A stretch of 64,000 nt of DNA. Origin: Escherichia coli (GTDB taxonomy: Bacteria; Pseudomonadota; Gammaproteobacteria; Enterobacterales; Enterobacteriaceae). Below the pieces are notes generated by a model. It searched no databases. It had not been told where the DNA came from and saw only the letters and a program-made list of their open reading frames with translations. Location of the stretch: the NCBI RefSeq assembly GCF_003019035.1, contig NZ_CP027447.1. One strand, 5' to 3'. Shown here piece by piece: positions 3,793-41,938 of this stretch (position 1 is its first letter; each line of letters opens with the position of its first letter). The translations under genes were made by a program, and so were the position numbers.

Positions 3793-4913
3793 TGCGTTTT
3801 GTTGATGAATATCGCGCGCCGGAACAGGTGATGCAGTTAATTGAGCATCTACGCGAACGTGCTTCACATCTCTCTTACACCGCTGAACGCCCTCTGCGAA
3901 TTATGGAAGTGTGCGGCGGCCATACCCACGCCATTTTTAAATTCGGCCTCGACCAGTTACTGCCGGAGAACGTTGAGTTTATCCACGGTCCGGGTTGCCC
4001 GGTATGTGTACTGCCGATGGGAAGAATCGACACCTGCGTGGAGATTGCCAGCCATCCGGAAGTCATCTTCTGTACCTTTGGCGACGCCATGCGCGTACCA
4101 GGGAAACAGGGGTCGTTGTTACAGGCAAAAGCGCGCGGTGCCGATGTGCGCATCGTTTACTCGCCAATGGATGCGTTAAAACTGGCGCAGGAGAATCCAA
4201 CCCGCAAAGTGGTGTTCTTCGGCTTAGGTTTTGAAACCACCATGCCGACCACCGCCATCACTCTGCAACAGGCAAAAGCCCGCGATGTGCAGAATTTTTA
4301 CTTCTTCTGCCAGCACATTACGCTCATCCCAACACTGCGCAGTTTGCTGGAACAGCCGGATAACGGTATCGACGCGTTCCTCGCGCCCGGCCACGTCAGT
4401 ATGGTTATCGGCACCGACGCCTATAATTTTATCGCCAGCGATTTTCATCGTCCGCTGGTGGTGGCTGGTTTCGAACCGCTTGATCTACTGCAAGGCGTGG
4501 TCATGCTGGTGGAGCAGAAAATAGCAGCCCACAGCAAGGTAGAGAATCAGTATCGTCGGGTGGTGCCGGATGCCGGTAACCTGCTGGCGCAACAGGCGAT
4601 TGCCGATGTGTTCTGTGTCAACGGCGACAGCGAATGGCGCGGCTTAGGCGTGATTGAATCTTCTGGTGTACACCTGACGCCGGATTATCAACGATTCGAT
4701 GCCGAAGCGCATTTCCGCCCGGCACCGCAGCAGGTCTGCGATGACCCGCGCGCACGTTGTGGCGAAGTATTAACGGGCAAATGTAAGCCGCATCAATGCC
4801 CGCTGTTTGGTAACACCTGTAATCCTCAAACCGCGTTTGGTGCGCTGATGGTTTCCTCCGAAGGAGCGTGCGCCGCGTGGTATCAGTATCGTCAGCAGGA
4901 GAGTGAAGCGTGA
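3792..4913 (+). CDS. hypD: Hydrogenase maturation factor HypD (373 aa)
   Basis: 373-aa ORF with CGxH and CPVC motifs, operon position. Confidence 0.95.
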   Translation: MRFVDEYRAPEQVMQLIEHLRERASHLSYTAERPLRIMEVCGGHTHAIFKFGLDQLLPENVEFIHGPGCPVCVLPMGRIDTCVEIASHPEVIFCTFGDAMRVPGKQGSLLQAKARGADVRIVYSPMDALKLAQENPTRKVVFFGLGFETTMPTTAITLQQAKARDVQNFYFFCQHITLIPTLRSLLEQPDNGIDAFLAPGHVSMVIGTDAYNFIASDFHRPLVVAGFEPLDLLQGVVMLVEQKIAAHSKVENQYRRVVPDAGNLLAQQAIADVFCVNGDSEWRGLGVIESSGVHLTPDYQRFDAEAHFRPAPQQVCDDPRARCGEVLTGKCKPHQCPLFGNTCNPQTAFGALMVSSEGACAAWYQYRQQESEA

Positions 4914-5920
4914 ATAATATCCAACTCGCCCACGGTAGCGGCGGCCAGGCGATGCAGCAATTAATCAACAGCCTGTTTATGGAAGCCTTTGCCAACCCGT
5001 GGCTGGCAGAACAGGAAGACCAGGCGCGCCTTGATCTGGCGCAACTGGTGGCGGAAGGCGACCGTCTGGCGTTCTCCACCGACAGTTACGTTATTGACCC
5101 GCTGTTCTTCCCTGGCGGTAATATCGGCAAGCTGGCGATTTGCGGCACCGCGAATGACGTTGCGGTCAGTGGCGCTATTCCGCGCTATCTCTCCTGTGGC
5201 TTTATCCTCGAAGAAGGATTGCCGATGGAGACACTGAAAGCCGTAGTGACCAGCATGGCAGAAACCGCCCGCGCGGCAGGCATTGCCATCGTTACTGGCG
5301 ATACTAAAGTGGTGCAGCGCGGCGCGGCAGATAAACTGTTTATCAACACCGCTGGCATGGGCGCAATTCCGGCGAATATTCACTGGGGCGCACAAACGCT
5401 AACCGCAGGCGATGTTCTGCTGGTGAGTGGAACTCTCGGCGACCACGGGGCGACTATCCTTAACCTGCGTGAGCAGCTGGGGCTGGATGGCGAACTGGTC
5501 AGCGACTGTGCGGTACTAACGCCGGTTATTCAGACGCTGCGTGACATTCCCGGCGTGAAAGCGCTGCGTGATGCCACCCGTGGTGGAGTGAACGCGGTAG
5601 TTCATGAGTTCGCGGCAGCCTGCGGTTGTGGTATTGAAATTTCAGAAGCGGCACTGCCGGTTAAACCTGCTGTACGCGGCGTTTGCGAACTGCTGGGACT
5701 GGACGCCCTTAATTTTGCCAACGAAGGCAAACTGGTGATCGCCGTTGAACGCAACGCAGCAGAGCAAGTGCTGGCGGCGTTACATTCCCATCCATTGGGA
5801 AAAGACGCGGCGCTGATTGGTGAAGTGGTGGAACGTAAAGGTGTTCGTCTTGCCGGTCTGTATGGCGTGAAACGAACCCTCGATTTACCACACGCCGAAC
5901 CGCTTCCGCGTATATGCTAA
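4910..5920 (+). CDS. hypE: Hydrogenase maturation factor HypE (336 aa, AIR-synthase-like)
   Basis: 336 aa ending ...PRIC, overlaps hypD stop. Confidence 0.95.
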   Translation: MNNIQLAHGSGGQAMQQLINSLFMEAFANPWLAEQEDQARLDLAQLVAEGDRLAFSTDSYVIDPLFFPGGNIGKLAICGTANDVAVSGAIPRYLSCGFILEEGLPMETLKAVVTSMAETARAAGIAIVTGDTKVVQRGAADKLFINTAGMGAIPANIHWGAQTLTAGDVLLVSGTLGDHGATILNLREQLGLDGELVSDCAVLTPVIQTLRDIPGVKALRDATRGGVNAVVHEFAAACGCGIEISEAALPVKPAVRGVCELLGLDALNFANEGKLVIAVERNAAEQVLAALHSHPLGKDAALIGEVVERKGVRLAGLYGVKRTLDLPHAEPLPRIC

Positions 5921-14460: not shown

Positions 14461-15719
14461 TCAAGATTGGCGTTATCGCCGATGATTTTACCGGCGCGAC
14501 GGATATCGCCAGTTTTCTGGTGGAAAACGGTCTACCAACGGTACAAATTAACGGTGTTCCAACAGGTAAAATGCCGGAAGCAATCGACGCACTGGTGATC
14601 AGCCTGAAAACGCGTTCCTGTCCGGTGGTTGAAGCCACACAGCAATCGCTGGCGGCTCTGAGCTGGTTGCAACAGCAAGGTTGCAAACAGATCTATTTCA
14701 AATACTGCTCTACTTTCGACAGTACGGCGAAAGGTAATATCGGCCCGGTTACCGATGCATTAATGGATGCTCTCGACACGCCGTTTACGGTCTTCTCTCC
14801 GGCCCTGCCGGTCAACGGACGTACGGTTTATCAGGGGTATTTGTTCGTAATGAATCAACTGCTGGCCGAATCCGGGATGCGCCATCACCCGGTAAATCCC
14901 ATGACCGACAGCTATCTTCCTCGTCTGGTTGAAGCGCAATCCACAGGGCGCTGCGGCGTCGTTTCGGCACATGTTTTCGAACAAGGTGTGGATGCCGTTC
15001 GTCAAGAGCTGGCTCGCTTACAGCAAGAGGGCTACCGCTACGCGGTGCTTGATGCGCTGACCGAATACCATCTGGAAATTCAGGGAGAAGCCTTGCGCGA
15101 TGCCCCACTGGTAACGGGCGGTTCTGGTCTGGCGATTGGCCTTGCCCGGCAGTGGGCGCAAGAAAACGGTAACCAGGCTCGCAAAGCAGGGCATCCGCTC
15201 GCTGGGCGCGGCGTAGTGCTCTCCGGTTCATGCTCTCAAATGACCAACCGCCAGGTAGCACATTACCGTCAAATTGCACCAGCCCGTGAAGTTGATGTGG
15301 CACGCTGCCTCTCAATTGAAACTCTGGCCGCTTATGCACACGAACTGGCAGAGTGGGTTCTGGGCCAGGAAAGTGTACTTGCTCCACTGGTTTTTGCCAC
15401 CGCAAGCACTGACGCATTGGCAGCAATTCAACAGCAATACGGTGCACAAAAAGCCAGTCAGGCAGTAGAAACACTGTTTTCTCAACTAGCGGCGCGGTTA
15501 GCAGCGGAAGGCGTGACACGCTTTATTGTCGCAGGCGGTGAGACCTCCGGCGTAGTCACACAGAGCCTGGGAATAAAAGGGTTTCATATTGGCCCAACCA
15601 TTTCCCCTGGCGTGCCGTGGGTAAACGCACTGGATAAGCCTGTCTCACTCGCCCTTAAATCTGGCAACTTCGGTGATGAAGCCTTTTTTTCACGAGCCCA
15701 AAGAGAGTTTTTATCATGA
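14457..15719 (+). CDS. otnK: 3-oxo-tetronate kinase (DUF1537 family, 420 aa)
   Basis: 420 aa, overlapping start/stop with neighbours; corresponds to ygbK. Confidence 0.85.
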   Translation: MIKIGVIADDFTGATDIASFLVENGLPTVQINGVPTGKMPEAIDALVISLKTRSCPVVEATQQSLAALSWLQQQGCKQIYFKYCSTFDSTAKGNIGPVTDALMDALDTPFTVFSPALPVNGRTVYQGYLFVMNQLLAESGMRHHPVNPMTDSYLPRLVEAQSTGRCGVVSAHVFEQGVDAVRQELARLQQEGYRYAVLDALTEYHLEIQGEALRDAPLVTGGSGLAIGLARQWAQENGNQARKAGHPLAGRGVVLSGSCSQMTNRQVAHYRQIAPAREVDVARCLSIETLAAYAHELAEWVLGQESVLAPLVFATASTDALAAIQQQYGAQKASQAVETLFSQLAARLAAEGVTRFIVAGGETSGVVTQSLGIKGFHIGPTISPGVPWVNALDKPVSLALKSGNFGDEAFFSRAQREFLS

Positions 15720-16354
15720 GCGATTTCGCAAAAGTAGAGCAGTCTTTGCGAGAGGAGATGACGCGGATTGCCAGTTCATTCTTTCAGCGCGGCTATGCAA
15801 CCGGTTCGGCTGGCAATCTGTCGCTGCTTTTACCTGACGGGAATTTACTGGCGACACCGACAGGTTCATGCCTGGGCAATCTCGATCCGCAGCGGCTTTC
15901 CAAAGTCGCCGCGGATGGCGAATGGTTAAGTGGTGACAAACCCTCGAAAGAGGTGCTCTTTCATCTGGCGCTGTATCGCAACAATCCGCGCTGTAAAGCG
16001 GTGGTGCATTTGCACAGCACATGGTCGACGGCGCTTTCCTGCCTGCAAGGGCTGGACAGCAGCAACGTTATTCGTCCGTTCACACCATACGTGGTGATGC
16101 GGATGGGAAATATCCCGCTGGTGCCTTATTACCGACCGGGCGATAAACGCATCGCACAGGATCTGGCGGAACTGGCAGCAGACAATCAGGCTTTTTTACT
16201 GGCAAATCATGGCCCAGTGGTTTGCGGTGAAAGCCTGCAAGAAGCCGCCAACAATATGGAAGAGCTGGAGGAAACGGCAAAGCTGATTTTTATTCTCGGT
16301 GACCGCCCGATCCGTTATCTGACCGCAGGTGAAATTGCGGAATTAAGGAGTTAA
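15716..16354 (+). CDS. otnC: 3-oxo-tetronate 4-phosphate decarboxylase (class II aldolase/adducin family, 212 aa)
   Basis: Class II aldolase-like sequence; corresponds to ygbL. Confidence 0.85.
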
Positions 16355-16358
16355 TGCA

Positions 16359-17135
16359 ATGCCTCGTTTTGCAGCTAATTTATCCATGATGTTCACCGAA
16401 GTGCCTTTTATTGAACGCTTCGCCGCAGCGCGAAAAGCCGGGTTCGATGCTGTGGAATTTCTGTTTCCCTATAACTACTCCACCCTGCAAATCCAAAAGC
16501 AACTGGAGCAAAACCATCTGACACTGGCGCTGTTCAATACCGCTCCCGGAGATATTAATGCGGGGGAATGGGGATTATCCGCCCTTCCCGGACGTGAGCA
16601 CGAAGCACACGCAGACATCGACCTGGCACTGGAATATGCATTGGCGCTCAATTGTGAACAAGTCCATGTGATGGCAGGCGTCGTGCCCGCTGGCGAAGAT
16701 GCTGAACGGTACAGGGCAGTATTTATCGATAATCTCCGCTACGCTGCCGACCGCTTTGCGCCACACGGCAAGCGAATATTAGTTGAAGCACTCAGCCCCG
16801 GCGTTAAGCCTCATTATCTCTTCTCCAGCCAGTATCAGGCACTGGCTATTGTTGAAGAAGTTGCGCGAGATAACGTGTTTATTCAACTAGATACTTTTCA
16901 TGCGCAAAAAGTAGATGGCAACCTGACGCATTTAATCCGCGACTACGCCGGGAAATATGCGCACGTACAAATTGCCGGACTACCTGATCGACATGAACCG
17001 GACGATGGAGAAATCAACTATCCGTGGCTGTTCCGCCTGTTCGATGAGGTGGGATATCAGGGCTGGATCGGTTGTGAATATAAACCTCGTGGCCTCACCG
17101 AAGAAGGGCTTGGCTGGTTTGACGCCTGGCGCTAA
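16359..17135 (+). CDS. otnI: 2-oxo-tetronate isomerase (hydroxypyruvate isomerase/TIM-barrel family, 258 aa)
   Basis: Xylose isomerase-like TIM barrel; corresponds to ygbM. Confidence 0.85.
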
Positions 17136-17223
17136 TTCGTTAAATCCCTAATTACAACGTACCCATACATCCCCCCATCTACGGATGGGGTAGGTTAACT
17201 ATAACTTTCAGACAGGGTTTCCC

Positions 17224-18588
17224 ATGTCCACAATTACATTGTTATGCATTGCGTTAACTGGCGTAATCATGCTGTTGCTGCTGGTCATCAAGGCAAAGGT
17301 ACAACCATTCGTTGCTCTGCTCCTCGTCAGCCTGTTAGTCGCACTTGCGGCGGGTATACCGGCGGGCGAAGTGGGTAAAGTGATGATCGCCGGGATGGGC
17401 GGTGTGCTTGGTTCCGTCACTATTATTATTGGTCTGGGCGCTATGCTGGGGCGTATGATCGAACACTCTGGTGGTGCAGAGTCACTGGCTAATTATTTCA
17501 GTCGCAAGTTAGGTGACAAACGAACTATCGCTGCACTGACTCTGGCAGCGTTCTTCCTCGGTATCCCCGTCTTCTTTGATGTCGGCTTTATTATTCTTGC
17601 GCCAATCATTTACGGTTTTGCCAAGGTTGCCAAAATATCGCCACTCAAATTTGGCCTGCCTGTCGCTGGGATCATGCTCACTGTTCATGTGGCGGTACCG
17701 CCGCATCCAGGCCCTGTCGCCGCAGCGGGGTTACTCCACGCAGACATCGGCTGGCTAACCATCATCGGTATTGCGATTTCTATTCCCGTAGGGATTGTTG
17801 GCTACTTTGCAGCGAAAATAATCAATAAGCGCCAATATGCAATGTCGGTGGAAGTACTGGAACAGATGCAACTGGCTCCGACCAGTGAGGAAGGCGCGAC
17901 AAAATTAAGCGATAAAATAAATCCACCGGGCGTCGCGCTGGTCACCTCGCTAATTGTTATTCCTATCGCGATTATCATGGCGGGTACGGTTTCCGCAACA
18001 CTGATGCCGCCTTCGCATCCCCTGCTTGGTACGCTACAGCTGATCGGCTCACCAATGGTAGCTCTAATGATTGCGCTGGTGCTGGCATTCTGGTTATTGG
18101 CTTTACGTCGCGGCTGGAGCTTACAACACACCAGCGACATTATGGGCTCAGCCCTTCCCACCGCGGCGGTAGTGATTTTGGTTACTGGTGCTGGAGGGGT
18201 ATTTGGCAAAGTGCTGGTGGAATCGGGCGTCGGCAAAGCCCTTGCCAACATGCTACAAATGATTGACCTGCCTCTGTTACCAGCCGCATTTATTATTTCA
18301 CTGGCGCTGCGTGCATCGCAGGGGTCAGCAACCGTAGCAATCCTGACAACCGGCGGGTTACTCTCAGAAGCGGTGATGGGATTGAATCCGATTCAGTGCG
18401 TATTGGTGACGCTGGCAGCCTGCTTTGGTGGGCTTGGCGCGTCACATATTAATGACTCAGGGTTCTGGATTGTGACCAAATATCTGGGGTTGTCGGTAGC
18501 AGACGGTCTGAAAACCTGGACAGTGTTAACGACCATTCTCGGTTTTACCGGATTCTTAATTACCTGGTGCGTATGGGCGGTAATTTGA
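17224..18588 (+). CDS. ygbN: GntP-family acid-sugar permease (454 aa)
   Basis: Highly hydrophobic 454-aa ORF with GntP-like topology. Confidence 0.88.
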   Translation: MSTITLLCIALTGVIMLLLLVIKAKVQPFVALLLVSLLVALAAGIPAGEVGKVMIAGMGGVLGSVTIIIGLGAMLGRMIEHSGGAESLANYFSRKLGDKRTIAALTLAAFFLGIPVFFDVGFIILAPIIYGFAKVAKISPLKFGLPVAGIMLTVHVAVPPHPGPVAAAGLLHADIGWLTIIGIAISIPVGIVGYFAAKIINKRQYAMSVEVLEQMQLAPTSEEGATKLSDKINPPGVALVTSLIVIPIAIIMAGTVSATLMPPSHPLLGTLQLIGSPMVALMIALVLAFWLLALRRGWSLQHTSDIMGSALPTAAVVILVTGAGGVFGKVLVESGVGKALANMLQMIDLPLLPAAFIISLALRASQGSATVAILTTGGLLSEAVMGLNPIQCVLVTLAACFGGLGASHINDSGFWIVTKYLGLSVADGLKTWTVLTTILGFTGFLITWCVWAVI

Positions 18589-18595
18589 CCTTAAT

Positions 18596-18626
18596 AAAAA
18601 GGTCCGATGGGCATCGGACCTTTTAT
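18596..18626. terminator. Bidirectional rho-independent terminator between convergent ygbN and the decarboxylase small-subunit gene
   Basis: AAAAGGTCCGATG..CATCGGACCTTTT inverted repeat flanked by A/T runs. Confidence 0.55.
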
Positions 18627-18863
18627 TTAGCGCTTACCTTCCGCCAGCAGCGGCGGGATGCTCGGCACCATCGGCGCGTCATCAATATCTTTCTGCGTCA
18701 TGCGGAACGCTTCGGGATAATGTTCGCGGCTGGTGCGGCGCAGCGGTTCGGTATCGCGCCAGGTATAGAGGCAATGCTGGCACTGGTAGACCGTCCAGAC
18801 ATCTTTTACCGGCGATTTCGCCATCACTTCAATCTGTTCATCAGCACAACGTGGACAAATCAT
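18627..18863 (-). CDS. Small subunit of UbiD/UbiX-type aromatic acid decarboxylase (EcdD/KpdD/BsdD-like, 78 aa), zinc-ribbon CPRC...CQHC
   Basis: 78-aa ORF with two Cys pairs, AAGGAG RBS, immediately downstream of UbiD-like gene. Confidence 0.75.
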   Translation of the reverse strand: MICPRCADEQIEVMAKSPVKDVWTVYQCQHCLYTWRDTEPLRRTSREHYPEAFRMTQKDIDDAPMVPSIPPLLAEGKR

Positions 18864-18873
18864 CTTGTTCTCC

Positions 18874-20325
18874 TTATTGACGTGCGGCCAGCATAGCGGT
18901 CAGTTTTTCAGCCCAGGCTTTGGTTTCCGGTAAATCCACCACCGGCTGACTGTAGTGACCGCGGTTGTCCGGGGCGACAGGCGTGGTGGCGTCGATAATC
19001 AGCTTGTCGGTGATCCCCGCCGGGCTTGAGCCTGGGTCGAGTTCCAGCACGGACATATTCGGCAACTGCACCAAATCCCCTGCCGGGTTCACTTTCGAGG
19101 AGAGCGCCCACATCACCTGCGGCAGGTTGAACGGATCAACGTCTTCATCGACCATAATCACCATCTTCACATAGCCCAGACCGTGCGGCGTGGTCATCGC
19201 ACGGAGGCCCACCGCGCGGGCAAAGCCACCGTAGCGTTTTTTGGTGGAGATAATCGCCAGCAGGCCGTGGGTGTACATGGCGTTTACCGCCTGCACTTCC
19301 GGGAACTCGGCTTTCAGTTGCTGATACAGCGGCACGCAGGTGGCTGGCCCCATCAGGTAGTCGATTTCCGTCCACGGCATCCCGAGATAGAGCGATTCAA
19401 AAATGGGTTTGCTGCGATAAGAGACGTTATCGATGCGCACCACGGTCATGTTGCGCCCGCCGGAGTAGTGCCCGGTAAACTCACCGAACGGCCCTTCGAT
19501 TTCACGTTTACGGCTTTCGATGACACCTTCGAGGATCACTTCTGAACCCCACGGCACATCAAAACCAGTCAGCGGGGCGGTGGCGATCGGGTACGGGCTT
19601 TCACGCAGCGCGCCTGCCATTTCGTACTCGGACTGATCATATTTCAGCGGCGTGGCCCCCATCAGCGTGATGATCGGATCGTTACCGAGGGTGATCGCAA
19701 TCGGCAGATCTTCACCGCGCTCTTCCGCTTTATGCAGATGCAGGGCGATATCGTGCATCGGCACCGGTTGCAGGCCGAGCTTACGTTTGCCCTTCACTTC
19801 CATGCGGTAGATACCGACGTTCTGCTTGCCGAAGTTATCCGGATCAAGCGGATCGCGGGAAACCACGCACGCTTTGTCGAGATAGAAACCGCCATCGCCA
19901 TCGTTTAAACGAAACAGCGGCAGGATATCGAACAGGTTGATCTCGTCTCCATCGACGGTGTTCTGCGCCCAGGCTGGATTGGCTCGGCGTTCCGGGGCAA
20001 TCGGGAAGTTGTCCCAGCGGCGGATAAACTCATCGATCTGTTTTTTAACCGGGGTATTTGGCGGCAGGCCGAGGGAAATCGCGTGGTTCTGCCAGGAACC
20101 GATGGTGTTCATCGCCACGCGGGCATCGGTAAAGCCGCGAATATTATCAAACCACAGCGCTGGCGCGCCGTCGCCGATACGCCCGGTGGCGTTGGCTGCG
20201 GCTGCCAGATCCGGTTCTGCGTTCACCTCTTCGCTGATTTTCAGCAATTGCCCATGGTCGTCGAGCGCCCTACCAGGCCATCGGCGTAACCGGCACGGAT
20301 ACCGGCGAGCGTTTTCATACTGCAC
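18874..20325 (-). CDS. UbiD-family (prenyl-FMN dependent) decarboxylase, EcdC/KpdC-like; N-terminal ~18 codons are non-homologous read-through from a deletion junction, start codon uncertain
   Basis: ~465 residues of UbiD-family sequence; ORF begins at GTG 20325 inside the upstream UbiX-like fragment. Confidence 0.7.
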   Translation of the reverse strand: MQYENARRYPCRLRRWPGRALDDHGQLLKISEEVNAEPDLAAAANATGRIGDGAPALWFDNIRGFTDARVAMNTIGSWQNHAISLGLPPNTPVKKQIDEFIRRWDNFPIAPERRANPAWAQNTVDGDEINLFDILPLFRLNDGDGGFYLDKACVVSRDPLDPDNFGKQNVGIYRMEVKGKRKLGLQPVPMHDIALHLHKAEERGEDLPIAITLGNDPIITLMGATPLKYDQSEYEMAGALRESPYPIATAPLTGFDVPWGSEVILEGVIESRKREIEGPFGEFTGHYSGGRNMTVVRIDNVSYRSKPIFESLYLGMPWTEIDYLMGPATCVPLYQQLKAEFPEVQAVNAMYTHGLLAIISTKKRYGGFARAVGLRAMTTPHGLGYVKMVIMVDEDVDPFNLPQVMWALSSKVNPAGDLVQLPNMSVLELDPGSSPAGITDKLIIDATTPVAPDNRGHYSQPVVDLPETKAWAEKLTAMLAARQ

Positions 20326-20579
20326 GGAATAACGATCATGCCGTCGGTACGAAAGGAACCTGAGGAGATGGTCGCCGCCTGATCCGCCGAGTTATGGCTG
20401 AAGTCTGCGAGGGCAGCAACATCGCGAGCGCTGTAAGGCGTTTCCAGTTCAATGGTGGTTTTCGCCCACGTCGACATCACCAGATGAGTCTCGACATTCG
20501 GCATCTCCCGCAGCGCTTGCAGTAATGCCACACCAAGAGGCGCACCGGTAGCCCCTGTCATCCCGACGATCAGTTTCAT
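20241..20579 (-). pseudogene. Truncated UbiX/Pad1-family flavin prenyltransferase (EcdB/KpdB-like): only N-terminal ~105 residues remain, then frameshifted tail and stop
   Basis: Translation matches UbiX through ...DGLVGR then diverges (STTMGNC*); full UbiX is ~190 aa; 3' end overlaps UbiD-like ORF. Confidence 0.75.
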
Positions 20580-20596
20580 TGCTTACTCTCTTAATT

Positions 20597-20610
20597 GTTC
20601 GTATACGAAC
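20597..20610. promoter_or_regulatory. Perfect 14-bp palindrome GTTCGTATACGAAC in divergent promoter region; candidate MarR-family operator
   Basis: Read directly; lies between divergently oriented decarboxylase genes and MarR-family gene. Confidence 0.35.
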
Positions 20611-20725
20611 GTTATTATTAACATACTCCTTCATTTCCACAGCGGCAAGGATTGAAAAGTAACAACATCTTCTTCGTCACTGAAAAACCGCTATGATAGC
20701 GACAGAGAATTAGCCCGGAGTTTAC

Positions 20726-21133
20726 ATGGCGTTACGAAATAAAGCGTTCCATCAGTTACGACAGCTTTTTCAGCAGCATACGGCCCGCTGGCAGCACGAG
20801 TTACCTGACCTGACCAAACCACAGTACGCGGTGATGCGCGCCATTGCTGATAAGCCTGGTATCGAACAGGTGGCACTGATAGAAGCAGCAGTCAGCACCA
20901 AAGCAACGCTGGCAGAAATGTTGGCAAGAATGGAAAATCGTGGCTTAGTCAGACGTGAACATGACGCCGCTGATAAGCGGCGACGCTTTGTCTGGCTGAC
21001 TGCCGAAGGAGAAAAGGTACTTGCTGCGGCGATACCGATTGGCGACAGTGTGGATGAGGAATTTTTGGGGCGTTTGAGTGGAGAAGAGCAGGAGCTGTTT
21101 ATGCAGCTGGTGCGCAAGATGATGAGCAAATAG
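20726..21133 (+). CDS. MarR/SlyA-family transcriptional regulator (135 aa)
   Basis: Winged-helix MarR-like sequence, divergent from decarboxylase genes. Confidence 0.8.
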   Translation: MALRNKAFHQLRQLFQQHTARWQHELPDLTKPQYAVMRAIADKPGIEQVALIEAAVSTKATLAEMLARMENRGLVRREHDAADKRRRFVWLTAEGEKVLAAAIPIGDSVDEEFLGRLSGEEQELFMQLVRKMMSK

Positions 21134-21207
21134 GATGTTGATTGCCGGATGGGACGCTGACGTGTCTTATCCAGGCGACAAAACACACCGACTCCCAAAT
21201 AAAAGAA

Positions 21208-21240
21208 AAAGGCCAGCCTCGCTTGAGACTGGCCTTTCTG
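21208..21240 (-). terminator. rpoS rho-independent terminator (AAAGGCCAG...CTGGCCTTT hairpin followed by T-run on minus strand)
   Basis: Inverted repeat with adjacent A-run on plus strand just downstream of rpoS stop. Confidence 0.55.
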
Positions 21241-21252
21241 ACAGATGCTTAC

Positions 21253-22245
21253 TTATTCGCGGAACAGCGCTTCGATATTCAGCCCCTGCGTTTGCAGGAT
21301 TTCGCGCAAACGGCGCAGGCCTTCAACCTGAATCTGGCGAACACGTTCACGGGTGAGGCCAATTTCACGACCTACATCTTCCAGTGTTGCCGCTTCGTAC
21401 CCCAGCAAACCGAATCGACGTGCCAGTACTTCACGCTGTTTGGCGTTCAGCTCGAACAGCCATTTGACGATGCTCTGCTTCATATCGTCATCTTGCGTGG
21501 TATCTTCCGGACCGTTCTCTTTTTCATCGGCCAGGATGTCCAGCAACGCTTTTTCGGAATCACCACCCAGCGGGGTGTCTACCGAGGTAATGCGCTCGTT
21601 AAGACGAAGCATACGGCTGACGTCATCAACTGGCTTATCCAGTTGCTCTGCGATCTCTTCCGCACTTGGTTCATGGTCCAGTTTATGGGACAACTCGCGT
21701 GCGGTTCGCAGGTAAACGTTCAGCTCCTTTACGATGTGAATCGGCAAACGAATAGTACGGGTTTGGTTCATAATCGCCCGTTCGATCGTCTGGCGAATCC
21801 ACCAGGTTGCGTATGTTGAGAAGCGGAAACCACGTTCCGGGTCAAACTTCTCTACCGCGCGGATCAGCCCCAGGTTGCCCTCTTCGATAAGATCCAGCAA
21901 AGCCAGACCACGATTGCCATAACGGCGGGCAATTTTTACCACCAGGCGCAAGTTACTCTCGATCATCCGGCGGCGAGAGGCAACATCTCCACGCAGTGCG
22001 CGACGCGCAAAATAAACTTCTTCTTCGGCCGTTAACAGTGGTGAATAACCAATCTCACCAAGGTAAAGCTGAGTCGCGTCCAGCACACGCTGTGTGGCTC
22101 CCTGCGATAACAGTTCCTCTTCGGCCAAATCGTTATCACTGGGTTCCTCTTCTACTAAGGCCTTTTCGTCAAAAACCTCAACTCCGTTCTCATCAAATTC
22201 CGCATCTTCATTTAAATCATGAACTTTCAGCGTATTCTGACTCAT
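21253..22245 (-). CDS. rpoS: RNA polymerase sigma factor RpoS (sigma-38, 330 aa)
   Basis: Sigma-70 family regions 2-4; start [14 protein letters not shown]; codon 33 is GAG (Glu), no amber. Confidence 0.97.
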
Positions 22246-22307
22246 AAGGTGGCTCCTACCCGTGATCCCTTGACGGAACATTCAAGCAAAAGCCTGGTTC
22301 CGCCGAT

Positions 22308-23447
22308 TTATCGCTGCGGCAAATAACGCAGCGGGTTTACGGATTTCCCCTTGTAACGAATTTCAAAATGCAAGCGTGTTGAACTGGTTCCGGTGCTACC
22401 CATGGTTGCTATTTTTTGCCCCGCCTTCACTTCTTGTTGTTCCCGGACCAGCATTGTGTCGTTATGGGCGTAGGCACTCAGGTAATCATCATTATGTTTG
22501 ATGATAATCAGATTACCGTAGCCGCGCAGCGCGTTACCGGCATAAACAACGCGGCCATCTGCAGTCGCGATAATTGCCTGTCCTTTGCTGCCTGCGATAT
22601 CAATCCCCTTGTTGCCCCCCTCAGAAGCGCCAAAGGTTTCGATCACTTTGCCCTCAGTCGGCCAGCGCCAGGTGGAGATAGGCGTACTGGTTGATGTACT
22701 GCTGACAGTCGGCTCGGTTGTGCTTGCTGTTGGTACCGTTACAGGCGCTGTGACCGTGGTCGCAGTTGGCTTGTTGTTCGGCAACATTTTGTTAGCACTC
22801 TGTTCACCCGAAGACTCAGAATACGTAATTGTCGGTTGCGACGCAACAGCAACGGTGGAATTTTGTGCAGGCTTGATCACAACTCCTTGCTCTGCTGCGT
22901 CGGCCTGGGTAATGGCATTTCCGCCAGTGATTGGCGTACCGGAAGCATTCCCCACCTGTAAGGTCTGACCGACGTTCAGCGCGTATGGTGCCTGAATATT
23001 GTTGCGCTGAGCAAGGTCACGGAAATCGTTGCCAGTAATCCAGGCGATATAGAAAAGTGTGTCGCCTTTTTTCACTGTATAGGTACTGCCGCTATAACTG
23101 CCTTTCGGAATGTTCCCATACTGACGGTTATAGACGATGCGTCCGTTTTCCATCTGTACCGGCTGCTGAGCTACTGGCTGCACCGGCTGGATTTGCGGTT
23201 GTTGAGTGGCCTGAATTTGTGGCTGCTGTACCGGCTGAATTTGCGGTTGCTGCGCTGTAGACGTCGTCCCCATTTTCGGCGGCGGCGTAATCAACATACC
23301 AGAATTGGTATTTGCAGGCGCATTGCCATTAACGGAGCTGACCGGGGCCGGTGGATTTGAAGTGTCAGAACAGCCTGCCAGCCATAGCGAAACCAGTGAC
23401 AAAGCCGCAATGCGGCGAACGGTGAATTTTGGGCTTCCCGCGCTCAT
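22308..23447 (-). CDS. nlpD: Murein hydrolase activator lipoprotein NlpD (LysM + LytM/M23 domains, 379 aa)
   Basis: Lipobox LAGC, LysM, C-terminal M23-like domain. Confidence 0.95.
23154..23252 (-). repeat. In-frame imperfect tandem repeat inside nlpD encoding QQPQIQ(P/A)(V/T) units
   Basis: Three ~24-27-bp repeats visible in DNA and protein. Confidence 0.6.
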
Positions 23448-23586
23448 TTATCCCCCAGGAAAAATTGGTTAATAACCAGTGACATAATTACCGTGCAAGG
23501 CACCATACTGAACACTGGAAAAGATGTTCACGATACGCTGACCTGCGGCAAAATAACCAGGAAAAATCCAGGTATTTCCTCACGTT

Positions 23587-24948
<1,362 letters not shown>

Positions 24949-28686: not shown

Positions 28687-30113
28687 TATTTATCTCCCAG
28701 TAAATCGCGCGCACCCCAATGCGGGAAATGGCGGCGAACCAGGGCATTCAATTCCAGTTCGAATGCACTGAATTGAGATGGCGCAGCAGTTGCCTGGCTA
28801 ACTGGCTCGTGCACCATACCGGCACCTACGGTCACATTGCTCAGGCGATCGATAAAAATCAGCCCACCGGTCACCGGATTTTGCTGATAACGATCTAACA
28901 CCAGTGGCTCGTCAAAAGTGAGATCCACCAGGCCGATGCCGTTCAGCGGCAGGTTTTCAACTTCGCGTTGGGTAAGGTTATTGATATCAACCTGATAACG
29001 AATGCCATCAACACGAGCACGCGTCTTCTTACCGGCAATTTTGATGTCGTAACTCTGGCCCGGGGAAAGCGGCTGTTCCGCCATCCATACCACATCCACC
29101 GACGCGCTCTGCACAGCCGGTAACGCTTCGTCTGCCGCCAGCAGCAGATCGCCACGGCTGATGTCGATTTCATCCGTCAGCACCAGGGTGATCGCTTCTC
29201 CGGCAAAGGCTTCTTCGCGATCACCATCAAAAGTCACGATCCGCGCGACGTTTGATTCCACACCAGAGGGCAGCACTTTTACACGTTGCCCGACTTCCAC
29301 GCGACCGGATGCCAGCGTTCCGGCGTAGCCACGAAAATCGAGATTCGGACGGTTAACGTACTGCACCGGGAAGCGCATTGGCTGAGCATCCACCACTCGC
29401 TGGATCTCCACGGTTTCCAGCACTTCGAGCAGTGTCGGACCGCTGTACCACGGCATACTTTCACTTTGCGAAGCCACGTTGTCGCCTTCCAGTGCGGAGA
29501 GCGGCACAAAGCGGATATCCAGATTACCCGGCAGCTGCCCGGCAAAAGTCAGATAATCTTCACGAATACGGGTGAACGTCTCTTCACTGTAATCCACCAG
29601 ATCCATTTTGTTGATCGCCACGACCAGATGTTTGATCCCCAACAGTGTGGAGATAAAACTGTGACGACGGGTTTGATCGAGCACGCCTTTACGGGCATCG
29701 ATCAGTAAGATCGCCAGTTCACATGTCGATGCGCCAGTCGCCATATTGCGGGTGTACTGCTCGTGCCCCGGGGTGTCGGCGATAATAAATTTACGCTTCT
29801 CGGTAGAGAAATAGCGGTAGGCCACATCAATAGTGATGCCCTGTTCGCGCTCAGCTTGCAGGCCGTCCACCAGCAGTGCCAGATCCAGCTTTTCGCCCTG
29901 GGTGCCGTGACGCTTACTGTCGTTATGCAGCGATGAGAGCTGATCTTCGTAGATTTGGCGGGTATCGTGTAGCAGGCGACCAATCAGGGTACTTTTGCCG
30001 TCATCGACGCTACCACAGGTCAGAAAACGCAGCAGGCTTTTATGTTGTTGCGCAATCATCCAGGCTTCGACGCCGCCTTCATTGGCGATTTGTTGTGCAA
30101 GTGCGGTGTTCAT
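28686..30113 (-). CDS. cysN: Sulfate adenylyltransferase subunit 1 CysN (GTPase, 475 aa)
   Basis: GTP-binding motifs [18 protein letters not shown]. Confidence 0.96.
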
Positions 30114-30114
30114 C

Positions 30115-31023
30115 TTAAAAATACCCCTGACGTTTTTTCAGCTCCATAGACCCCGCCTGGTCGCGGTCAATCACGCGGCCCTGACGTTCACTGGTGGTGG
30201 AAACCAGCATCTCTTCGATGATCTCCGGCAGTGTTTGTGCATTTGACTCCACCGCACCGGTCAGCGGCCAGCAGCCCAGCGTACGGAAACGCACCATCCG
30301 TTTTTTAATCACTTCGCCCGGTTGCAGGTCGATACGGTTGTCATCAATCATCATCAACATACCGTCGCGTTCCAGAACCGGACGTTCCGCAGCGAGATAC
30401 AGCGGCACAATGTCGATATTTTCCAGCCAGATGTATTGCCAGATATCCTGCTCGGTCCAGTTAGAGAGCGGGAAGACGCGGATGCTTTCGCCTTTGTTAA
30501 TTTGCCCGTTGTAGTTGTGCCACAGCTCCGGGCGCTGATTTTTCGGATCCCAGCGATGGAAGCGGTCACGGAAAGAGTAGATTCGCTCTTTAGCGCGGGA
30601 TTTCTCTTCGTCACGACGTGCGCCACCGAAGGCGGCATCAAAACCGTATTTGTTCAGCGCCTGTTTCAGGCCTTCAGTTTTCATAATATCGGTATGTTTC
30701 GCGCTGCCGTGTACGAATGGATTAATCCCCATCGCCACGCCTTCCGGGTTTTTATGCACCAGCAGCTCGCAGCCGTAGGCTTTCGCCGTACGATCGCGGA
30801 ACTCATACATCTCGCGGAATTTCCAGCCGGTATCGACATGCAGCAACGGGAAAGGCAGCGTACCTGGATAAAACGCCTTGCGCGCCAGATGCAGCATGAC
30901 GCTGGAATCTTTACCGATAGAGTAGAGCATCACCGGATTTGAGAATTCTGCAGCCACCTCGCGAATAATGTGGATGCTTTCCGCCTCCAGTTGCCGCAGG
31001 TGAGTAAGTCGTTTTTGATCCAT
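30115..31023 (-). CDS. cysD: Sulfate adenylyltransferase subunit 2 CysD (302 aa)
   Basis: PAPS reductase-like fold, 302 aa. Confidence 0.96.
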
Positions 31024-31275
31024 AACCGTTCCTTTGCAATACCGCTATTTTCTTGCCATCAGATGTTTCGACTATAGGGAGCGCAGGAGAACGAATGAAA
31101 TTACCAATTAGAATGAGTAGTTCCTTAACGGAATAACGATTTGGCAAAGCTAATATCAAAAAGTGCTTAAGGCACCGGATTTCGGGCGTTTAGGAAGATT
31201 TGAAATTGTTTTAGCGCATCGGCAGTTTCATACTATGGCGGTAAAAAAAATTTGCATGGTATTTAAGGACTCACT

Positions 31276-32313
31276 ATGTTTTCCGCATTGCGCCACCGTA
31301 CCGCTGCCCTGGCGCTCGGCGTATGCTTTATTCTCCCCGTACACGCCTCGTCACCTAAACCTGGCGATTTTGCTAATACCCAGGCACGACATATTGCTAC
31401 TTTCTTTCCGGGACGCATGACCGGAACTCCAGCAGAAATGTTATCTGCCGATTATATTCGCCAACAGTTTCAGCAAATGGGTTATCGCAGTGATATTCGG
31501 ACATTTAATAGTCGGTATATTTATACCGCCCGCGATAATCGCAAGAGCTGGCATAACGTGACGGGAAGTACGGTGATTGCCGCTCATGAAGGCAAAGCGC
31601 CGCAGCAGATCATCATTATGGCGCATCTGGATACTTACGCCCCGCTGAGCGATGCTGACGCCGATGCCAATCTCGGCGGGCTGACGTTACAAGGAATGGA
31701 TGATAACGCCGCAGGTTTAGGTGTCATGCTGGAATTGGCAGAACGCCTGAAAAATACGCCTACCGAGTATGGTATTCGATTTGTGGCGACCAGCGGCGAA
31801 GAGGAAGGGAAATTAGGCGCTGAGAATTTACTCAAGCGGATGAGTGACTCCGAAAAGAAAAATACACTGCTGGTGATTAATCTCGATAACTTAATTGTTG
31901 GCGATAAATTGTATTTCAACAGCGGTGTAAAAACCCCTGAAGCAGTAAGGAAATTAACGCGCGACAGGGCGCTGGCAATTGCGCGTAGTCATGGAATTGC
32001 CGCAACGACCAATCCGGGTTTGAATAAAAATTATCCGAAAGGCACTGGGTGTTGTAATGACGCAGAAATATTCGACAAAGCGGGCATTGCTGTACTTTCG
32101 GTTGAAGCGACTAACTGGAATCTTGGGAATAAGGATGGTTATCAGCAACGCGCAAAAACAGCCGCATTCCCTGCAGGAAATAGCTGGCATGACGTAAGAC
32201 TGGATAATCAACAACATATTGATAAGGCACTTCCTGGAAGAATAGAACGTCGCTGCCGTGACGTTATGCGGATAATGCTACCTCTGGTGAAGGAGCTGGC
32301 GAAGGCGTCTTGA
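31276..32313 (+). CDS. iap: Alkaline phosphatase isozyme conversion aminopeptidase Iap (M28 family, 345 aa)
   Basis: Signal peptide, M28 metal ligands, position adjacent to CRISPR array. Confidence 0.9.
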   Translation: MFSALRHRTAALALGVCFILPVHASSPKPGDFANTQARHIATFFPGRMTGTPAEMLSADYIRQQFQQMGYRSDIRTFNSRYIYTARDNRKSWHNVTGSTVIAAHEGKAPQQIIIMAHLDTYAPLSDADADANLGGLTLQGMDDNAAGLGVMLELAERLKNTPTEYGIRFVATSGEEEGKLGAENLLKRMSDSEKKNTLLVINLDNLIVGDKLYFNSGVKTPEAVRKLTRDRALAIARSHGIAATTNPGLNKNYPKGTGCCNDAEIFDKAGIAVLSVEATNWNLGNKDGYQQRAKTAAFPAGNSWHDVRLDNQQHIDKALPGRIERRCRDVMRIMLPLVKELAKAS

Positions 32314-32394
32314 TGGGTTTGAAAATGGGAGCTGCGAGTTCTACCGCAGGGGCGGGGAATTCTAAGTGATATCCATCATCGCATCCAGTGCGCC

Positions 32395-33094
32395 CGGTTT
32401 ATCCCCGCTGGCGCGGGGAACACTTGCAGTAGCACTTCAGTTCTGTTTTTGTCACCGGTTTATCCCCGCTGGCGCGGGGAACACGCCTGATAGCGCCTCC
32501 AGCCTTCGCCCTGGTGCGGTTTATCCCCGCTGGCGCGGGGAACACTGCATAGCTTTGGCTTCTTCTTTAACGGACGCCGGTTTATCCCCGCTGGCGCGGG
32601 GAACACAGTACCACTGTTTTTTCTTCGGTGCCCAGCCACGGTTTATCCCCGCTGGCGCGGGGAACACGTTTACATATTTATACCTACACGCTCAATCGAC
32701 GGTTTATCCCCGCTGGCGCGGGGAACACCCGTTTTCGATTGAACAGAAAGATTTCAACACCGGTTTATCCCCGCTGGCGCGGGGAACACAATACAGACCC
32801 GTTGTACGGTTTTTGCGAGCACGGTTTATCCCCGCTGGCGCGGGGAACACTTGGAAATCACCTCCCCGATCTCCGCGCTGTCCGGTTTATCCCCGCTGGC
32901 GCGGGGAACACCCCTCGGCAAAAATGCCTTTTTCCTCGTCGGTCGGTTTATCCCCGCTGGCGCGGGGAACACCACGGGCCAGACGGTAGCAACAATTTTA
33001 CGGCCGGTTTATCCCCGCTGGCGCGGGGAACACCAAAACGGAAGTGCCAGTATTGCCAGAATCACCGGTTTATCCCCGCTGGCGCGGGGAACAC
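32395..33094 (-). CRISPR. CRISPR array 1 (type I-E): 12 identical 29-bp repeats CGGTTTATCCCCGCTGGCGCGGGGAACAC (plus-strand reading), 11 spacers of 32 bp; leader at high-coordinate end
   Basis: Repeat starts at 32395, 32456, 32517, 32578, 32639, 32700, 32761, 32822, 32883, 32944, 33005, 33066; perfect 61-bp periodicity. Confidence 0.98.
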
Positions 33095-33190
33095 ACTAAG
33101 CATACGTATCTGTTTTTAAACAATTTTATTCCACATCAACAATCTACCAACTAAATTCAAACATTTCCTTATTTTTAAAGAACGGGTAAC
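33095..33190 (-). other. CRISPR leader of array 1 (AT-rich, contains CAATCTACCAACT motif shared with array 2 leader)
   Basis: AT-rich sequence between last repeat and cas2 stop; motif recurs downstream of array 2. Confidence 0.6.
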
Positions 33191-34400
<1,210 letters not shown>

Positions 34401-34404
<4 letters not shown>

Positions 34405-35051
34405 GCCTCTGCTCCAGGTTTGATCAGCATCAGACCACAACCGAACGCCCGGCTTTTGCCATACCCCTGACTGAGACGTTGCAGAAATAACCCAGGATCG
34501 GTGACCGTAAGCATCCCCGTATAATCCACGCTACTGAACTGGATCAGTTGCCGGGAGTTTTCCCGCCGCAGTTGCTGTTGTCGGTAGGCATCAACCGAAG
34601 TATCCAGCAGTGTAAAACCGCTTCTCTCCCCCTGCGCTGCCAGCCAGTCCAGCGCCGCCTGTTGTTGATGCAACCAGACATTTCTTCCTTCCGCCTGCCC
34701 CCTCACCTGCCGTTTCGCCTCCATCAGCAGATCGTGGCGCTTACCCGCTTTACAGACTGTTGGATTCGCCCGCAGGTTGAAACAAAGGGATTGTCCGGTA
34801 TGCAGTTCAGGCGCAAATGACCGGCATTCGATGGTGAACGTTTCACTTTCCGCCGGGCGTTCCTGCGACAGGACAAAAAAGCGAAACGCGCCCTGGAGTT
34901 CTTCCCGACGATAAAGAAATTGCCTTTCTTTGCCGCCAGGAAAAAGATCCCACAGCCACTGATGCATCACATATTCACCGCGATCCACCAAATGCAGCAA
35001 CTGCGCAGGCGAAAGCTGACCGGTATGTAAGGTTATTCTTGAGAGGTACAT
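34401..35051 (-). CDS. cas6e: Cas6e (CasE/Cse3) crRNA endoribonuclease
   Basis: ~216 aa starting MYLSRITL, C-terminal G-rich loop GYGKSRAFGCGLM; position in operon. Confidence 0.85.
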
Positions 35052-35779: not shown

Positions 35780-35789
35780 AAGCCGCCCC

Positions 35790-36845: not shown

Positions 36846-36859
36846 GAGATAGTCCTTTA

Positions 36860-38961: not shown

Positions 38962-39044
38962 CCTCTCGTAAAAAAGACCATCCCTGGTCGGTTGTCCATC
39001 CTTTTTTGTGTATCAACTATTCAGAGAATCCTGTCGCAGACATC

Positions 39045-41744: not shown

Positions 41745-41912
41745 ATATTAAAAATTATCTGTGATATATATCGTTCAATAAAATATTTACATTATGAATA
41801 ATCAAATAATTTTCATCCGTAATATATATGAATAATAAACATAGGCATAATATTCACATAAACAATATAAATTAAAAAAGGGTGCAGGAGACCAAACCAT
41901 CACAATTCAGTA

Positions 41913-41932: not shown

Positions 41933-41938
41933 TGGTGG

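Follow-up and report, generated by a model that had tools for sequence, protein, structure and literature searches.

Gene content of the ygbN–rpoS interval

Within the 64-kb stretch of Escherichia coli DNA analysed here (hereafter, the window), the interval between the stop codons of ygbN (18588) and rpoS (21253) comprises exactly positions 18589–21252 and carries the genes of a non-oxidative hydroxyarylic acid decarboxylase (HAD; ecdB, ecdC and ecdD), together with hosA, a divergently encoded MarR-family regulator (Table 1). Gene identities were assigned from NCBIfam profiles, PDB matches (HosA, 8AGA; Pad1, 1SBZ; VdcCD, 7AE4) and the RefSeq annotation of the intact allele, and we met no evidence that contradicts this identification of the locus. 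A preliminary description of this DNA had placed a decarboxylase/MarR module between ygbN and rpoS, and the NCBIfam searches recovered all of its elements there.

Table 1 Features of the ygbN–rpoS interval and its edges (window positions)
Feature	Position	Strand	Evidence
Hairpin between convergent ygbN and ecdD	18592–18629		Inverted repeat I1, 18-nt arms, 89% complementary; common to K-12 up to 18627
ecdD (vdcD/kpdD), intact, 78 aa	18627–18863	−	NCBIfam NF041205 VdcD equivalog, 121.2 bits versus cutoff 30
hosA-ecdBCD segment missing in K-12	18628–21206		blastn of the window versus K-12 locus L002, and junction sequences
'ecdC (vdcC/kpdC/yclC), UbiD-type catalytic subunit	18874–20268	−	NF041204 VdcC, 773.7 bits versus cutoff 650, profile positions 10–466
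ecdB' (vdcB/kpdB/pad1), UbiX-type flavin prenyltransferase, truncated	20241–20579	−	NCBIfam VdcB, 161.1 bits versus cutoff 290
Deletion junction	20259–20269		Two blastn segments overlap by 11 bp
HosA operator, perfect 14-bp palindrome GTTCGTATACGAAC	20597–20610		Published HosA oligonucleotides and conservation
Putative sigma-70 promoter of ecdBCD	20620–20648	−	TTGCCG (20648–20643), 17-nt spacer, TATGTT (20625–20620)
Putative hosA −10 hexamer TATGAT	20692–20697	+	Conserved columns, sequence
hosA, intact, 135 aa, MarR-family repressor	20726–21133	+	PDB 8AGA 'Transcriptional regulator HosA', E = 2e-83; NCBIfam MarR-family matches
rpoS terminator hairpin, right edge of K-12-common sequence	21208–21237	−	Terminator scan, inverted repeat I6, K-12 alignment

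The product of ecdD is a zinc-ribbon small subunit that reaches the equivalog cutoff and retains Cys3, Cys6, Cys28 and Cys31 in its translation, which together identify it as subunit D of the VdcBCD family; cysteines at the same four positions bind zinc in ShVdcD (PMC8379154), and chain a (ShdD) of PDB 7AE4 is matched at E = 3e-11. The UbiD-like open reading frame, called at 18874–20325 on the minus strand, scores above the VdcC cutoff yet lacks profile positions 1–9 and the ATG, and is not a full-length subunit C gene with its own start. Relative to the intact locus (L001), 'ecdC is without codons 1–11, the start codon and the coupling to ecdB, and codons 12–475 are the same in both alleles; candidate surrogate starts are a TTG at 20247 (457 aa) and a GTG at 20325 (483 aa). 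EcdB' is not a full-length UbiX-type subunit B either: it covers only profile positions 1–106 of 184 and has 112 residues (105 native followed by 7 out of frame) versus 197 in the intact protein. The intact counterparts have close structural matches, EcdC to PDB 7AE4 (E = 1.5e-159, with the alignment beginning at residue 3) and EcdB, which is nearly identical, to PDB 1SBZ (E = 9e-125). The hairpin that separates ecdD from the convergent ygbN is likely to be a bidirectional terminator.

The regulator is identical to crystallized HosA (PDB 8AGA) at 132 of 134 aligned residues, and the two positions that differ from the crystallized E2348/69 protein are C-terminal. It matches MarR-family winged helix-turn-helix models in NCBIfam, and Pfam PF01047 and PF12802 were found on its positional counterpart in L003, a locus that shares 100% DNA identity with the window. 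Three more specific NCBIfam identities were rejected: SlyA (28 bits versus a cutoff of 120), MarR proper (26 versus 240) and the top match, BagL/FevM (88 versus 230). The older name of hosA, 'slyA', is a misnomer.

A 315-bp deletion at the ecdB–ecdC boundary

In blastn alignment with strain SCU-301, the window is 100% identical apart from 315 bp that it lacks (positions 4682–4996 of L001), which encode EcdB residues 106–197 and EcdC residues 1–11, including the start codon. At the junction lies an exact GCGCC (20265–20269) within an imperfect 11-mer repeat (CGTCGAGCGCC versus CGCCGCGCGCC), both copies of which are present in L001. One recent 315-bp deletion at this 5-bp microhomology brought codon 105 of ecdB up against codon 12 of ecdC in a different reading frame, and left EcdB without its C-terminal half and ecdC without its start codon and translational coupling. 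The deletion allele keeps hosA, the operator and ecdD intact. Thus, the 'decayed state' that the preliminary description ascribed to the decarboxylase segment is real and comes down to this one deletion.

In the intact locus, EcdB, a UbiX-type flavin prenyltransferase, would produce prenylated FMN (prFMN), with which the UbiD-type EcdC would reversibly decarboxylate 4-hydroxybenzoate, vanillate and related acids, the zinc ribbon EcdD presumably acting as its obligatory activating subunit. This chemistry is taken from the literature: decarboxylase activity was shown for the homologous VdcCD, in which VdcC requires both VdcD and prFMN (PMC8379154), and the B proteins have been proposed to make the same cofactor as UbiX (PMC5779730).

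Operator and promoters in the divergent spacer

The palindrome GTTCGTATACGAAC lies between hosA and the decarboxylase operon, with 17 nt between its end and the ecdB start codon downstream, and a search of the 64-kb window that tolerated up to 2 mismatches returned no second copy. Perfect 14-bp palindromes are not unusual in themselves: the window has 3, and first-order Markov simulations gave 5.6 ± 2.1; for the 146-bp divergent spacer, the expectation is about 0.013. GTTCGTATACGAAC stands above chance through where it lies and how well it is conserved, with GTTCG-N4-CGAA(C/T) present in 80 of 80 species loci in a spacer that otherwise varies. With its flanking bases, the site reproduces that of published HosA binding-site oligonucleotides, one of which contains the exact TTAATTGTTCGTATACGAACGTTATTA (PMC6261655, supplementary table S1). 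Published EMSA, BLI and biosensor studies have made use of it, and in EMSA HosA bound the 14-bp palindromic site and was released on addition of 4-hydroxybenzoate (PMC6261655). Among the literature searched, no paper gave the 14-mer in its main text, and it was present only in this supplementary table, a machine-read version of which has three oligonucleotides that read GTTTCG (one extra T) and a fourth with the exact 14-mer. The suggestion that the palindrome is the operator of the MarR-family regulator is therefore upheld by the near-identity to 8AGA, the oligonucleotide match and the published EMSA, and the EMSA that had been proposed as a check has already been done, since the HosA operator is published.

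We propose one promoter for ecdBCD and a −10 hexamer for hosA on the basis of cross-species conservation; a consensus scan of 18500–21400 returned no promoter at a 9-of-12 threshold, and those proposed here score 8 of 12 or have a weak −35. For ecdBCD, the TTG of the −35 and T1, A2 and T6 of the −10 fall in the small set of conserved spacer columns, and 9 nt lie between the −10 and the operator, which would therefore start at about +1 to +3 and extend to about +15 to +17; a HosA site downstream of the transcription start is also reported in a preprint (bioRxiv 10.1101/2024.04.24.590444). The predicted transcription starts are at about 20611–20614 for ecdB' and near 20704 for hosA. The hosA −10 sits in an inverted repeat, CGCTAT-G-ATAGCG (CGCTATGATAGCG, 20689–20701), and the CTAT(G/C)ATAG core of this repeat was found again in most species loci. 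A scanner called the stretch at 20596–20611 'terminator-like', a call that we rejected because the stretch, the operator palindrome followed by T-rich sequence, is located 3' of the promoter and 5' of the ecdB start codon.

A HosA dimer bound to GTTCGTATACGAAC just 3' of the ecdB transcription start would be expected to block transcription, and binding of 4-hydroxybenzoate would take HosA off the DNA. Repression of the operon by HosA is reported in the literature (Roy and Ranjan 2016, Biochemistry, cited through bioRxiv 10.1101/2024.04.24.590444), as is release of the UMN026 protein from DNA by 4-hydroxybenzoate (the same preprint; PMC6261655).

Relation to known systems and distribution

The locus has the same divergent arrangement, operator and HosA (132/134) as the HosA–HAD operon known from E. 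coli UMN026 and E2348/69 (Roy and Ranjan 2016, cited through bioRxiv 10.1101/2024.04.24.590444; PDB 8AGA and related entries), but differs in that its operon is broken by the 315-bp deletion. More broadly, the UbiX-type B, UbiD-type C and zinc-ribbon D subunits, with D cysteines at 3, 6, 28 and 31, are those of VdcBCD, ShdBCD, BsdBCD and KpdBCD (7AE4, PMC8379154), whereas B and C are truncated in the window. The next-best solved relative of the regulator is PcaV from Streptomyces (PDB 4FHT, E = 7e-16). Like HosA, PcaV is a MarR repressor whose release is brought about by a hydroxybenzoate (here protocatechuate), but it is a distant relative that controls a ring-cleavage pathway rather than a decarboxylase. 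The Bacillus bsdBCD operon is under a LysR-type regulator, BsdA, in contrast to the MarR-type HosA at this locus.

The mutS–rpoS region is a documented polymorphic region, in which ygbN (o454) together with kpdD-kpdC-kpdB-slyA/hosA constitutes the o454–nlpD 'pattern IV' (PMC4209514). The window belongs to this pattern, with o454 present and kpdD-kpdC-kpdB-slyA/hosA between o454 and rpoS, in an allele 315 bp shorter, such that the diagnostic o454–nlpD amplicon, published as 4,546 bp (PMC4209514), would be about 315 bp less. The same gene content adjoins rpoS in the rpoS-proximal 2.9-kb segment (pad1, yclC, slyA-like) of O157:H7 and in the EPEC-type pattern IV (PMC4209514), and O157:H7 genomes match the segment at about 95% identity from query base 27 onward. 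Two further claims of the preliminary description agree with these comparisons: a polymorphic hotspot where the ygbI–ygbN and decarboxylase segments coexist corresponds to the published pattern IV (PMC4209514), and absence from K-12 was confirmed by the blastn comparison that it had called for, which delimits the missing part (Table 1). MG1655 aligns up to window position 18627 and resumes at 21207, and just 8 bp (GTGCACAG) separate the two aligned parts.

Interpretation

We hold with high confidence that the interval is the known hosA-hadBCD locus (alias ecdBCD, kpdBCD and pad1-yclC-slyA), that a single 315-bp deletion breaks two of its three enzyme genes, leaving an enzyme that is most probably inactive, and that the module is old at the 3' side of rpoS and was lost in K-12-like E. 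coli. The locus, its regulator, ligand and operator, and its strain-to-strain polymorphism have all been published already.

It is extremely improbable that the 315-bp gap arose through an error of assembly or sequencing. The deletion is absent from all eight complete RefSeq genomes with 99% identity or more over the junction (all match in two pieces spanning 616 bp), which would fit an artefact, but the exact 112-aa EcdB' is encoded on about 99 public contigs (NCBI and Logan assemblies), the same junction recurs in L003 and L004, two independent sequencing runs (SRR27538830 and SRR27538914) yielded contigs 100% identical to the window across it, and the microhomology is typical of a real deletion. 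We rejected an artefact on the identical junction in independent assemblies; the flanks fully identical to SCU-301, the roughly 99 contigs and the lack of the deletion in any close complete RefSeq genome argue instead for a deletion that is real, recent and lineage-restricted. What it leaves could conceivably still function, with a 457-aa EcdC made from the TTG under HosA control, intact EcdD and prFMN from the housekeeping UbiX; this possibility and its alternative, that hosA has been retained for targets outside the decarboxylase operon, are unlikely even when taken together. The 'ecdC TTG overlaps the ecdB' stop codon (TTGCTGA), a 457-aa subunit C is reported by gene callers and NCBI for 63 contigs, a UbiD-type enzyme runs in E. 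coli on UbiX-made cofactor (PMC5779730), and there is no more damage in ecdC codons 12–475 or in ecdD. Moreover, the loci of six other species are naturally hosA-ecdCD without ecdB, for which reason the housekeeping UbiX might supply prFMN, and a working two-gene allele would mirror these loci (Pluralibacter, Superficieibacter, Cedecea and Rahnella). However, the first 18 native residues of EcdC would be absent from such a product, and they belong to a conserved, structured part of the protein, given that EcdC is 89–100% identical over the 72 of 80 loci with a tblastn match spanning at least 472 residues and that the structure match starts at residue 3. In addition, a TTG without a clear Shine–Dalgarno sequence is a weak start, and the lack of further mutations is equally explained by a very recent deletion, the flanks being unchanged from SCU-301. 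We therefore infer loss of function: with the C-terminal half of EcdB, the ecdC start and the coupling gone, the enzyme is most probably inactive, and decarboxylase activity on 4-hydroxybenzoate or vanillate is predicted to be lost in the deletion allele.

The preliminary description had also labelled the segment 'accessory', and its variable presence stands (at least 80% coverage in 2,378 of 5,426 complete E. coli genomes, ~44%), whereas the gain that the word suggests is improbable. A horizontally acquired island inserted between ygbN and rpoS, with K-12 keeping the ancestral empty site, is quite improbable, although the presence of the segment in just 44% of complete genomes would suit it, as would the known mosaic nature of the region (PMC4209514), the title of a preprint that terms HosA 'horizontally acquired', and base composition (GC of ecdC/ecdD about 5 points above the flanks). 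Of the 80 non-E. coli species loci, just one has ygbN next to the module, which points the same way and implies that the arrangement is derived on its ygbN side. Yet the divergent hosA/ecdBCD arrangement is shared by every one of the 80 species loci, and 68 of these, nearly all from Enterobacteriaceae, have rpoS no more than 4 kb away; the 68 include Escherichia albertii, E. whittamii, Citrobacter, Klebsiella, Salmonella, Kluyvera and Enterobacter. The rise in GC content is also only slight (0.57–0.58 versus about 0.52–0.53). Hallmarks of a mobile genomic island were also missing: no mobility genes (integrase or transposase) are annotated in the intact allele, a repeat search found no direct repeats bounding the segment (it did report short two-copy families, apparently chance matches), and the sole Rfam match in the whole window was sok (42076–42233), outside the ygbN–rpoS interval. 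In K-12, one breakpoint coincides with the stop codon of ecdD and the other with the terminator of rpoS, and 8 bp of filler separate them, a pattern that resembles a deletion scar. Because the module is so consistently close to rpoS, its absence from K-12 is better read as loss, and K-12 most likely lost it.

Conservation of the half-sites across 80 species loci provides independent confirmation of the published HosA site, and HosA with GTTCGTATACGAAC is already in use as a 4-hydroxybenzoate biosensor. The 315-bp deletion could serve as a marker of one E. coli lineage, and it constitutes a natural test of the dispensability of EcdB when UbiX is present.

Gene content of the ygbN-rpoS interval

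The interval at 18589-21252 runs exactly from the ygbN stop to the rpoS stop and holds four reading frames (table), counterparts of which are annotated in RefSeq for the intact allele of strain SCU-301 as decarboxylase subunits D, C and B and a 'MarR family winged helix-turn-helix transcriptional regulator', with ygbN and rpoS flanking. Intact EcdB was all but identical to PDB 1SBZ (O157:H7 'Pad1'; E = 9e-125), EcdC matched the phenolic acid decarboxylase VdcC of PDB 7AE4 (E = 1.5e-159), and EcdD matched the small partner of VdcC in the same structure (E = 3e-11), with its cysteines 3, 6, 28 and 31 at the positions of the zinc ligands in ShVdcD. Decarboxylation of 4-hydroxybenzoate and vanillate by VdcC requires VdcD and prenylated FMN (Marshall et al., PMC8379154), and it has been proposed that the B proteins and UbiX produce one and the same cofactor (PMC5779730). 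The regulator was identified as HosA (132 of 134 aligned residues matching PDB 8AGA, 'Transcriptional regulator HosA'; E = 2e-83); it is neither SlyA nor MarR proper, both of which scored far under their NCBIfam cutoffs.

Features of the ygbN-rpoS interval, with species loci that lack ecdB (window coordinates unless given per locus)
Feature	Coordinates	Strand	Basis or description
ygbN	17224-18588	+	ORF
ecdD	18627-18863	-	78 aa; NCBIfam VdcD equivalog 'non-oxidative hydroxyarylic acid decarboxylases subunit D', 121 bits versus cutoff 30
'ecdC	18874-20325	-	NCBIfam VdcC, UbiD-type subunit C, 773.7 bits versus cutoff 650; match from profile position 10
ecdB'	20241-20579	-	112 aa; NCBIfam VdcB, UbiX-type subunit B, profile positions 1-106 of 184, 161 bits versus cutoff 290
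Putative ecdB-side promoter, TTGCCG-17-TATGTT	20648-20620	-	conserved spacer columns
Putative hosA -10, TATGAT	20692-20697		upstream of hosA; conserved columns
hosA	20726-21133	+	135 aa; MarR-family protein (NCBIfam)
rpoS	ORF end at 21253	-	ORF
Loci without ecdB (L052, L069, L070, L075, L080, L084)	about 3780-4000 in each		Pluralibacter MAG, Superficieibacter sp. 1612_C1, S. electus, Cedecea sulfonylureivorans, Rahnella victoriana, Rahnella sp. AA

The HosA operator across species

According to a bioRxiv preprint (10.1101/2024.04.24.590444, after Roy and Ranjan 2016), HosA of E. coli UMN026 reportedly represses both its own gene and the hydroxyarylic acid decarboxylase operon, binds a palindrome located downstream of where transcription begins, and is released by 4-hydroxybenzoate. 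A perfect 14-bp palindrome (20597-20610) lies in the 146-bp hosA-ecdB spacer, where about 0.013 would be expected; such a palindrome is in itself unremarkable across 64 kb (3 observed versus 5.6 +/- 2.1 in Markov simulations), and we therefore compared a set of 80 loci, one for each species, whose HosA relatives share 60-100% identity. The other two in the window, TTAAACGCGTTTAA (35607-35620) and AGAAACGCGTTTCT (42394-42407), have the common core AAACGCGTTT.

In all 80 loci, hosA was divergent from ecdCD (with ecdB also present in 74) and the motif GTTCG-N4-CGAA(C/T) was found. The match was exact in 26, including L073, where the site lies within a longer spacer; variation among the others was confined to the four central bases or, for five Rahnella loci, to the final base. 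Both half-sites were at least 95% conserved in the spacer alignment, and most neighbouring columns were not. Together with published oligonucleotides, this conservation bears out the proposal in the preliminary description that the palindrome is the operator of the MarR-family protein, and the mobility-shift assay suggested there is already in the literature: Yao et al. (PMC6261655) studied a '14-bp TFBS of HosA' by EMSA and biolayer interferometry and built biosensors with it. Their oligonucleotide T_H (supplement) contains TTAATTGTTCGTATACGAACGTTATTA, identical to window 20590-20616, and the flanks of DNA-HosA-F0 are those of the window minus strand (TAATAATAAC ... AATTAAGAGA); three oligonucleotides in their table, as machine-read, show one extra T (GTTTCG...), which may be a reading error.

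The remaining conserved spacer columns would be compatible with two promoters (table). The -10 of the putative minus-strand promoter ends 9 nt ahead of the operator, a placement consistent with the published HosA site downstream of the start. A second inverted repeat, CGCTAT-G-ATAGCG (20689-20701), overlaps the putative hosA -10 and has no sequence kinship with the operator; its core, CTAT(G/C)ATAG, was kept in most of the 80 loci, and the repeat might be the -10 plus context alone, or might serve autoregulation or bind another factor.

Several loci were irregular. The MAG 'Citrobacter sp. HRGM_Genome_0066' has two copies, L005 and L021. In one, a 6-kb contig, HosA is 100% identical to that of E. 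coli, and this short contig probably entered the MAG by mis-binning of E. coli DNA; in the other, a contig of 133 kb, HosA is Citrobacter-like and 77% identical. EcdC tblastn matches were fragmented or short in Citrobacter amalonaticus AUH_CA_2023_1 (L032, 246 aa), Enterobacter sp. EA-1 (L033, 361 aa; EcdB, EcdD and RpoS matches poor too) and Kluyvera genomosp. 3 (L066, 325 aa), which could reflect independent decay or frameshift-rich assemblies.

Presence, absence and origin of the module

At least 80% of the interval was found in 2,378 of 5,426 complete E. coli genomes, always on the chromosome (megablast). K-12 MG1655 aligned at the two edges only, with identity up to 18627 and again from 21207; 8 bp (GTGCACAG) replace the segment, leaving a ygbN-rpoS gap of 93 bp. 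The left breakpoint lies at the ecdD stop codon, just beyond a hairpin common to both alleles (18592-18629), and the right one at the rpoS terminator hairpin (21208-21237). Within the K-12-absent segment, the hosA-rpoS spacer carries TGCCGGATGGGACGCTGACGTGTCTTATCCAGGC (21146-21176), which resembles a repetitive extragenic palindrome (REP) in degenerate form. The absence from K-12, the polymorphism of the region and the joint carriage of ygbN and the decarboxylase segment had all been anticipated, and all three hold: Ewers et al. (PMC4209514) defined four o454(ygbN)-nlpD patterns, of which pattern IV, typified by EPEC E2348/69 with 'kpdD, kpdC, kpdB and slyA' between o454 and rpoS, is the arrangement of the window; in pattern I (O157:H7) this module occurs but ygbN does not, in pattern II (K-12) there is neither the module nor another insert, and in pattern III (phylogroup B2 strains) the insert is a different one.

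Such a distribution could arise by gain or by loss. Most simply, the module is ancestral at the rpoS position and was lost in K-12-like strains, because rpoS lies less than 4 kb from hosA-ecdBCD in 68 of the 80 loci (among them Escherichia albertii, E. whittamii, cryptic Escherichia clades, Citrobacter, Klebsiella, Salmonella, Kluyvera, Enterobacter and Kosakonia), no mobility genes are annotated in the module of the intact SCU-301 allele, a repeat search found no direct repeats bounding the segment, and module GC is only ~5 points higher than that of the flanks. The ygbN side is the derived junction, since ygbN adjoins the module in only one other species locus.

Arrangement around rpoS also varied. 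The whole module is inverted, with rpoS adjoining ecdD and not hosA, in L017, L019, L037, L044, L065 and L071 (Salmonella enterica subsp. diarizonae and arizonae, three Phytobacter species and Kosakonia sp. S29), and an additional ~2.6 kb lies between hosA and rpoS in the Klebsiella oxytoca group and in many loci of Enterobacter, Leclercia and Lelliottia. Elsewhere in the window, a sok antitoxin RNA (42076-42233, minus strand; 111 bits, Rfam) lies beside a hok/gef gene, and synteny with SCU-301 (L085) predicts, at ~30000-42000, a type I-E CRISPR-Cas locus running from cas3 to cas2, together with CRISPR arrays that lie between cysH and iap.

A 315-bp deletion in ecdB and ecdC

The decarboxylase segment had been described as decayed, and comparison with SCU-301 traces this to a 315-bp deletion hitting ecdB and ecdC (positions 4682-4996 of the intact locus, L001). 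The window was 100% identical to SCU-301 over 15589-20269, and 20259-24252 was identical except for two mismatches, the only differences located being two between copies of an imperfect 11-mer repeat. Within this repeat, the junction has a 5-bp exact microhomology, GCGCC (20265-20269), the signature of slippage or microhomology-mediated deletion. The deletion allele is real: two assemblies from different sequencing runs matched the window with 100% identity over 8.3 and 5.0 kb spanning the junction, and the exact 112-aa EcdB' was found on 99 contigs (NCBI and Logan; longest 5.17 Mb), versus at least 1,000 for intact EcdB. The intact 616-bp version was present in all eight complete RefSeq genomes that match the junction region at 99% identity or more. 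Because the flanks are perfectly identical to those of an intact strain, the comparison indicates a recent event in a single lineage.

Lost to the deletion are EcdB residues 106-197, with 7 out-of-frame residues remaining, and EcdC residues 1-11, including the start codon, whose native position overlaps the ecdB stop; codons 12-475 of ecdC remain unaltered relative to the intact allele. With half of the fold gone, EcdB' is certainly inactive as a prenyltransferase, and 'ecdC would most likely yield little if any protein. From a TTG at 20247 that overlaps the ecdB' stop codon (TTGCTGA), gene callers predict a product of 457 aa, named subunit C by NCBI. In six species loci (table), hosA is divergent from ecdC-ecdD without ecdB, with the operator directly upstream of ecdC, which suggests that a dedicated UbiX-type subunit is dispensable where a housekeeping UbiX exists. 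Residual activity of the deletion allele seems improbable, and would be conceivable because these species have hosA-ecdCD without ecdB and UbiX can provide the cofactor (PMC5779730).

Together, these results confirm the earlier observation and support its interpretation. The interval holds no new kind of system, and its sole new item is this lineage-specific allele with a 315-bp deletion.
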